Assembly: GCF_036507355.1 (NCBI RefSeq)
Contig: NZ_AP027877.1
Reading direction: 5' to 3' (one strand)
DNA from: Escherichia coli
GTDB taxonomy: Bacteria; Pseudomonadota; Gammaproteobacteria; Enterobacterales; Enterobacteriaceae
DNA: 64,000 nucleotides
In this document: positions 10,801-13,800 of the stretch, piece after piece
Layout: the number at the start of each line of letters is the position of its first letter
Position numbering within the stretch: position 1 is the first letter of the stretch
Made by a program: the position numbers

Positions 10801-13800
10801 CAAAACCCTGAATTGCCCCCAGCCAGATAGCGCCAGTTGCGGCAGCGTGGATACCATCATCACAACTATGCGGATCAGCACCAAGATCGATTTCAGTCCC
10901 CTCGCGCCAGAACTGATAACTTTGGGTCAGCAGGCCACAGCGTGCGGCAACAATGCCGTGGATTGCTTTACTTAATGACGAGTCGTGAATAGTGCGCGGT
11001 TCATAAAATTGCAGATTGGCAAGACACGATACCGCTGAGAACTGCTCCGGCAGCATGTAATTGAGCATCACCACATCAGCTTGTTTGAGGATCTGCATCT
11101 CGTTCACTTCTGCGCGTGAATAATCCAGCAGAATGGTTTGCTTCCCCGCCGCCGCTTTGTATTTAGCCAGATTAATCGCCGGCTTAGCCATAAACGAATC
11201 ATCCTGCGGCAAAACGCCATCGGGCTGCGTTTCTGGCATCCATAGCTCTTTGAGGAACATTTCGGCCCGATGGATAAACGCATCGTCGCTACAGCCGAAC
11301 TGGCGGGCAATATTCAGCGCCTGTTGAACGTTGTAGCGGGCCATATAGCTGGTGTATGCATTATTATTGACATGTTCGGTATATTCGTCTGGTCCAATAA
11401 CATCATGAATTTCCAGACGATCGTTAACTCTCACCGCGCGGCTAATCCAGAACTTTGCCGTCTCCAGAAGTAGCGCCATGCCTTCATGAGCAATGAAACT
11501 TTCATCCCCCGTTGTCTGCCAGTATTGAATAACCGCCCAGGCGATATCGGCGACCAGATGATGTTCCGCCTGCGCCGAGGCCACTTTTTGCCGCAGCCCG
11601 GTGCGAATGTTAATGGCGGCAAATTCCGGCGTCTCTTCTTCGCCGCTGCGCGCGCTTTCCCACGGAAATAGCGCGCCCTGCCAGCCATTGCGTCGCGCTT
11701 TCTCCTGCGCGCCAGGCAAGTTGTGCCAGCAATAACGCAGTAAACTTCGGGCAACCGTCGGATCGCTAAACAGATGAAACGGTAGCAAAAATACTTCTGT
11801 ATCCCAGAAAACGTGGCCTTTGTAGCCTTCGCCGGTTAAGCCTTTTGCCGCAATACTGCTGCGCTCGTCGTGGGCGGGCGTCATGATGCGCAGATGATAA
11901 AGTGCATAATCTAACGCTTGCTGATCGTGCGCATCGCCGCCGTTTACCGTGATACGACGTTTCTGCCACAACTGACGCCAGTTTTCTGTTGATGCTGCAA
12001 GAAGTTGGTCGTAACTCTGCTGCGCACACATTTCAAGCTGGCGAAGCGACGCACTGCCCCACTCGTCTAAAGCAGCTTGCCTGTCATCCCGCCAGTCGAT
12101 CCACACCCGTTTTTGCAACGTCACTGTCTCGCCTGCATGAAGCTGCGCACTGGTATGTTGCAGCAAACGGCGCTCTTTGGCGGTATAGCATTGCTGCACA
12201 TCACCGCTCACCTTACAGCAACAGCTGATGGCCACATCACTGCGTCCATCCTGGGTGGTGTAGATCCCCTGCATCAGATGCTGACCAAACACCCGCACCT
12301 GGGTTTCGTCGAGATGCTGGCGACCGTGGTTGGTTTGCGTGGCGTCGATACCTGTTGAAATCAGCACTGACGCGACGGCGTCCAGTGGCGTAATAGTGAT
12401 TTCCAGCGCAATGAGCGGCAGTTGGTCTGCCGAAACAAAGCGACGGCTGGCGATGGTGTAACCTGCGCCGTTGCTGGTACGCCAGACAACGTTGCGGCGT
12501 AATTCGCCACTGGCAAAGTCAAGCTCACGCTGCCAGGCTTCGTGGGATAACGAGAAAACCTCACCATTTATGGCAATCTCCATCCCCAAGATATCAGGCA
12601 GGTTCACCAGTTCGTTGATTTCACCTTTACCCGCCCGATGATACAGCCCCGCCAGATACATTCCTCGCGTCTGGCGCGTGTAATCTTCTTCATGGCTGGC
12701 GCGAAGCCCAAGATAGCCGTTCCCCTGCGCCATCAGCGATGCATACTTGTTCAGGGTATGCTGGCTGAAATGGGGTTCTGATAACGTTACTGGCCTGGTC
12801 ATAATTCCACACGCGTCCCTGTTTCTGCGGATTGATATAACGCCGCCACCAGTTGCTGGATGATGTACCCCTGCTCGGCGTCGGCTATCATCACGGGCTT
12901 GCCCTGTACGTGATTGATAAAGGCTTCCATGCTGCGCAAATGGCGGTTGTCGTCTGCCATTTCCCGTTGCATCAGCGTCATTAACTCACCGTTGTTATCG
13001 GTGTAGATATGTGCTGGAAACAGCGTCGCACCGGCTTTATCACCACAAAAGCTGACGTTCATAATCGACTGTTCGCGGATGTTGAGTGCAAATGACGTTT
13101 CCAGCCACAGAATGCCGATGTCGATCAGCGGGCCACCACCCTGCAGTTCTTTATTGGTAAAGACGCCCCAGCCGGGAACGCCGCAGCGACGCAGGGCGCG
13201 GGCGGTGGTAACGTAAATCTCTCCCAAAACGCCGTTGGTCACCTGTTCGCGCAGCTGTTGCGTATCGAGCGCAAAACGATGGTGAAAGTCGTAGGCCAGC
13301 ACCTTGCCCTGTTTGCGCGCGATATCGCACATTTCCCGCGCCTGTTCTGGCGTCATGGCGGGCGGTTTTTCGCACATCACATGGCAGCCCGCTTCCAGTG
13401 CCATCAGGGTATGTTCGTAATGAAAACGGTTAGGTGAGCAGACGCTAACCACATCAGGTTTCACCGCCAGCAGCATGGCCTGCGGATCGTCCCACACGGA
13501 TGCATTACCGTATTTATCTGCCAGCGCCTGCGCCTGGGAAAGGCAGCTGTCACAGACAGCCACCAGTTCCAGATCGTTGCGGGTGCAGTAGTACGAAGCA
13601 TGAACCTTATCCGCCACCTGGCCTGCGCCTATTATCGCGACCCGCAGCGGAGAGCTTGTCATTGCACTTTTCACAAAGACCTCTTAGCAGGTACGCAACC
13701 AGGCCAACGAATCACGGTACGCCTGGGCAGGATCTTCTGCCCGGATACGCCCTTCATACACCACATAACCCTGATAGTTATCGGCGCGCAGCTGTTCAAA

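Follow-up and report, generated by a model that had tools for sequence, protein, structure and literature searches.

Does the short ycjS gene of this Escherichia coli strain still encode a working enzyme, and how did the gene come to be short? YcjS is reportedly a D-glucoside 3-dehydrogenase, and ycjQRS are said to encode a D-guloside-to-D-glucoside pathway; in this analysis its function (NAD+-dependent D-glucoside 3-dehydrogenase) was taken from RefSeq product names and secondary citations. In the window, by which we mean the whole 64,000-nucleotide stretch of DNA analysed, all genes of the ycj operon are encoded on the minus strand. The ycjS ORF occupies 12799..13674 (minus strand), runs from a GTG start to a TGA stop and encodes 291 aa. 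The original prediction held that this is short for the family, whose members were expected to measure about 330-360 aa, and comparison with reference genomes bore out both statements. The K-12 MG1655 gene (b1315, RefSeq product D-glucoside 3-dehydrogenase) has 1056 nt and encodes 351 aa, as does the ycjS of NZ_AP024130.1 (1056 nt, 351 aa). YcjS orthologues from about 100 clusters (Citrobacter, Salmonella, Klebsiella, Enterobacter, Lelliottia, Cronobacter, Buttiauxella and others) measure 346-352 aa, a full length that is constant across genera and that the 291-aa window protein does not reach, and the best 60 PDB homologues of window YcjS span 310-433 aa. The window protein is a genuine length outlier. 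The length difference is a deterministic sequence difference and carries no statistical signal, so chance is not an issue.

Pairwise alignment with the 351-aa D-glucoside 3-dehydrogenase placed the loss at codons H189-I248. These 60 residues, 17% of the protein, are absent, and window YcjS reads ...GGGPLIDIGI followed directly by LWLETSFALN... At the DNA level, alignment with annotated ycjS revealed a single gap of exactly 180 bases, aligned to codons, with no further indel. This is the in-frame deletion of about 60 residues that had been predicted in the C-terminal domain around GGGPLIDIGILWLETSFALN, and the alignment proposed as a check returned a single 60-aa internal gap, with the PF02894 profile matching in two pieces. 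Outside the gap, protein identity to annotated YcjS is 99%. The retained part carries two substitutions relative to WP_000833564.1, R44C (13543..13545, minus strand) and T118I (13321..13323, minus strand), beside four synonymous differences, a number too small for a test of relaxed selection. Both gene junctions, already described as intact, have the same spacing as in K-12. Upstream, an intact ycjR (3-dehydro-D-guloside 4-epimerase, 262 aa; 13684..14472, minus strand) is separated from ycjS by a 9-nt gap, and the downstream ORF starts at 12802, giving a 4-nt ATGA overlap with ycjS; the corresponding K-12 coordinates (locus L003) are 7823 for the end of ycjR, 7833..8888 for ycjS and 8885 for the start of ycjT. 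Judged by its place between ycjR and ycjT, its reference-like junctions and its near-identity over the aligned length, the window gene is by descent unambiguously ycjS. The 180 deleted bases are divisible by three and both breakpoints sit between codons; the ORF therefore stays in frame, keeps its stop codon and remains coupled to ycjT through ATGA, and for this reason gene callers return an intact 291-aa 'Gfo/Idh/MocA family protein'. Three points go beyond the original prediction: the loss of a catalytic histidine, a direct repeat at the deletion, and damage to three more genes of the operon.

The consequences for the enzyme differ between its two domains. The N-terminal NAD-binding Rossmann domain, predicted to be complete, is intact (residues 10-129; 13288..13647, minus strand) and matches PF01408 over profile positions 1-119 of 120 with an E-value of 5.6e-35. 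Its sequence is unchanged except for R44C and T118I, and a GAGQVA fingerprint at residues 16-21 supplies the NAD(P)-binding GxGxxG/A feature. The EKP motif that holds the characteristic Gfo/Idh/MocA lysine is also unchanged (residues 102-104; 13363..13371). In this family the catalytic K-D-H triad takes its Lys from EKP and its Asp and His from a D-x3-H motif (PMC5969746), and the EKP Lys has a catalytic or cofactor-contacting role (PMC5969746, PMC11612644). In reference YcjS these residues are K103, D185 and H189. The window protein keeps D185 (codon at 13120..13122, minus strand), the Asp of the D-x3-H pair. The deletion begins with H189, whose place is taken by a Leu (former L249); the window reads D-I-G-I-L, and the catalytic pair D-x3-H (or Y), located where the C-terminal domain begins, is lost. 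In scyllo-inositol dehydrogenase, Ala at any residue of the K-D-H triad abolished activity (PMC5969746).

The C-terminal alpha/beta domain is itself incomplete. PF02894 matches reference YcjS end to end (profile 1-218 of 218, 140.1 bits), whereas window YcjS matches in two pieces, the best stretch covering profile positions 97-218 with 75.7 bits. We mapped the deletion onto the AlphaFold model of reference YcjS, which has a moderate mean pLDDT of 72, with values below 50 at residues 157-186 and 253-280 and of 83-84 over most of the deleted block. In this model, a helix (188-198) and two strands (203-213 and 234-243) fall within the deleted block. The deletion takes H189, the helix beginning at H189 and two long strands of the sheet that forms the C-terminal substrate pocket. 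From homology we infer that the 291-aa YcjS should be catalytically dead, and the model suggests that it is probably misfolded or unstable. Loss of function is the best reading of the deletion, because the missing block holds the catalytic His, 28 residues that are invariant among orthologues, and a helix and two strands.

ycjS is not the only damaged gene of the operon. Directly downstream, ycjT (kojibiose phosphorylase) and pgmB/ycjU (beta-phosphoglucomutase) form one fusion ORF of 951 aa (9947..12802, minus strand), which results from a 68-bp deletion. This deletion trims 4 aa from the end of YcjT and about 19 aa from the N-terminus of PgmB. The lost PgmB stretch includes FDLDGV (D9, D11), which, from what is known of HAD phosphatases and beta-PGM, holds the nucleophile and general acid/base aspartates. 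Further along, the operon's ABC ATPase gene ycjV carries a nonsense codon, Q139* (CAA to TAA; 9517..9519, minus strand), inside the ABC signature LSGGQ, which splits it into ORFs of 138 aa and 211 aa (9517..9933 and 8851..9486); this lesion differs from the C-terminal frameshift behind the K-12 ycjV pseudogene. Finally, a 768-bp IS1 with InsA and InsB ORFs (18918..19685, plus strand) interrupts ycjM (glucosylglycerate phosphorylase) within its 3' part, is flanked by a 9-bp target duplication, CGTTCAGTT, at 18909-18917 and 19686-19694, and cuts ycjM to an ORF of 470 aa (19681..21093, minus strand) as against 559 aa. The operon has taken four independent lesions: ycjM::IS1, the 180-bp deletion in ycjS, the 68-bp deletion between ycjT and pgmB, and ycjV Q139*. 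The IS1 insertion is later than both deletions, since it is missing from the near-identical draft assembly GCA_905398585.1.

The sequence at the ycjS breakpoint suggests how the deletion may have arisen. The junction (13100..13117, minus strand) is a hybrid copy, CGGCATTCTGTGGCTGGA, of two reference sequences, CGGCATTCATATGCTGGA and CGGCATCCTGTGGCTGGA, which are imperfect direct repeats identical at 13 of 18 positions and lie 180 bp apart. The crossover falls between window position 13111, the last left-specific base, and 13109, the first right-specific base. Such a pair is rare: only one of the 858 18-mer windows at offset 180 in ycjS has at least 13 matches, and the background frequency is about 1e-4. 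The ycjT/pgmB junction (10549..10564, minus strand) is built in the same manner, as a hybrid, ACCGCTACCACGCATC, of the direct repeats ACCGCTACCACACATC and ACCGATACCGCGCATC, which are identical at 13 of 16 positions, lie 68 bp apart and are unique at their offset (1 of 416 windows; background about 1e-5). The 180-bp stretch would thus have been lost between two imperfect direct repeats, most likely by replication slippage or another RecA-independent, microhomology-mediated deletion. Slippage is plausible as a mechanism, though not proven: judged by the available reference sequences, each of the two crossovers has 1 base of strict microhomology with mismatches on either side, and at the ycjS crossover the strictly shared base is a single C. 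The real ancestor of the lineage may have carried a better repeat than these references do. If its codon 248 was ATT, the repeats would contain a perfect 8-bp microhomology, CGGCATTC, and the slippage model would be strengthened. A phase-variable or programmed deletion was considered and rejected, the repeats being short and imperfect, with neither a tandem array nor a second copy.

The four lesions are most simply read as relaxed selection on an operon that this strain lineage can dispense with and that is decaying in it. The operon is dispensable in the species: the ycjR-ycjS-ycjT segment (window 12600..13900) lacks any match in 468 of the 5426 complete E. coli genomes, ycjV is a pseudogene in K-12, pgmB has an internal stop and is annotated as a pseudogene in NZ_AP024130.1 (locus L001, 7543..8202; another independent lesion), the protein collection contains many cut-off YcjS fragments of E. 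coli and Shigella, and internal deletions occur in metagenome assemblies. The latter are in-frame deletions in ycjS itself, in the sequences P0060, P0059 and P0024 (residues 225-285, 82-131 and 127-157, respectively), and come from ENA metagenome assemblies; they may be real alleles or assembly artefacts. Among the complete genomes, six matches to the segment lie on plasmids. Most genomes are 95-99% identical to window 12600..13900, the best reaching 99.1%, and the window operon is fairly divergent from that of K-12 (about 96-98% identity).

The alternative that survives best is that the allele is kept for a non-catalytic or altered role, either as an NAD-binding pseudoenzyme or as selected silencing that maintains coupling to the downstream genes (ycjT ... 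ompG). The deletions in ycjS and in ycjT/pgmB are both in frame, which would happen by chance about one time in nine (1/9), and this could hint at selection for translation through the operon instead of pure neutral decay. The Rossmann domain, the EKP motif and D185 are also intact, and a cofactor-deficient pseudoenzyme, GFOD1, is known among Gfo/Idh/MocA proteins (PMC11612644). However, ycjV, which lies downstream, is interrupted by a nonsense codon, and in the window strain an IS1 breaks the cluster's first gene, ycjM; the throughput of the operon is therefore not under protection. The deletion also removes core secondary structure in the AlphaFold model, beyond the active-site residue alone, and the allele is limited to one narrow lineage. 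We regard an altered role as improbable, and the more specific version, in which both deletions were selected since they remove a catalytic motif (H189 in YcjS, D9/D11 in PgmB) and keep ribosomes moving or yield an NAD-binding pseudoenzyme with a new role, as slightly more improbable still. A lineage-specific loss-of-function allele of ycjS, produced by a 180-bp deletion in a decaying, dispensable sugar operon, is in our judgement very likely the best explanation.

Could the strain really carry a full-length gene, shortened by an assembly or sequencing error such as a collapse between two short repeats? The gap does lie between similar short sequences, and the junction is found in 0 of the 5426 complete E. 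coli genomes of the RefSeq set. When window 12600-13900 was compared with these genomes by megablast, the match always came in two pieces, with 1481 record bases for 1301 query bases, and the best genomes share 99.1% DNA identity with the window ycjS region. We also used 54-base junction probes, whose halves were still seeded since the repeats extend each half; every full-coverage match in the complete genomes was split in two, over 54+180 or 54+68 bases, with no contiguous one among them. Thus none of the 5426 genomes contains the contiguous ycjS deletion junction, and the ycjT/pgmB junction is in no complete E. coli genome searched (5426) but is present in the draft GCA_905398585.1 (locus L002). 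Against an error, the same 291-aa protein is encoded in two separately deposited assemblies. One is the VEE46 genome, an E. coli complete genome from DDBJ in which the identical protein is deposited as BED22596.1/WP_338387613.1 (locus tag VEE46_23640, 4.64-Mb contig); the other is the ENA draft GCA_905398585.1 (CAJPYR01), whose locus matches the window over 12.9 kb except for 1 SNP and the IS1, which is present in the window only. The carrier assemblies are two separate isolates of one lineage that differ from each other by this insertion. An imperfect repeat of 18 bp is also much too short to make an assembly collapse. With the allele in two assemblies, we rejected an artefact as highly improbable: the allele is real. 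As far as found, the ycjS junction appears to be confined to one narrow lineage.

The remaining alternative is that the 291-aa protein represents the ancestral state or a naturally short isoform, and that K-12-like strains gained the 60 residues by insertion. It has the intact reading frame as its sole support and was rejected as barely conceivable, since orthologue clusters of other genera (72-87% identity) are all 346-352 aa long and all contain the block, 28 of its 60 positions (including H189, M190, L191 and D192) are invariant among 32 orthologues at 72-87% identity, and PDB homologues, DgpA among them, have the equivalent region. Because the block occurs in all orthologues and is invariant at 28 of 60 positions, comparison across these sequences indicates that the event is a deletion in the window lineage and not an insertion in the reference strains.

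The allele carries little biological weight: it is a pseudogene of one strain lineage, and E. coli often loses or damages the operon to which it belongs. Its annotation is another matter. WP_338387613.1 is still named an ordinary 'Gfo/Idh/MocA family protein' although its catalytic residue and 17% of the protein are gone, and the 951-aa YcjT-PgmB fusion likewise passes for a gene. In-frame deletion alleles of this type escape pseudogene calling, and a metabolic reconstruction of the strain would mistakenly include both the ycjQRS guloside/glucoside pathway and a beta-phosphoglucomutase.

Set beside known systems, window YcjS is closest to E. coli K-12 YcjS (b1315, NP_415831.1), with which it shares the locus, the ycjR-ycjS-ycjT synteny and the GTG start. 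DNA identity outside the gap is about 97-99%, and the window gene lacks H189-I248 (180 bp). The closest solved structures to YcjS are those of the gut-bacterial glycoside 3-oxidoreductases DgpA and DgpA1 (PDB 7xr9, 7xre, 9m3d), which are alike to YcjS in that C3 oxidation of glucosides is carried out by a Gfo/Idh/MocA enzyme. They are the best PDB sequence matches of window YcjS (E-values of 6e-44 and 2e-41 across the 190 N-terminal residues), and the model of full-length YcjS can be superposed on the crystal structures of DgpA/DgpA1 with a TM of about 0.73 at 30-33% identity. The C-terminal domain of DgpA is complete, whereas window YcjS aligns in three pieces and skips roughly DgpA1 residues 191-244. 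Compared with K-D-H enzymes of the scyllo-inositol dehydrogenase type (PMC5969746), window YcjS keeps the EKP Lys and the D-x3-H Asp, but its His is deleted. The ycj operon has been inactivated repeatedly in other lineages, at other positions (ycjV in K-12, pgmB in NZ_AP024130.1 and YcjS fragments in E. coli and Shigella flexneri). In this company the ycjS allele is nothing unusual, a pseudogene that arose by in-frame deletion in one lineage.
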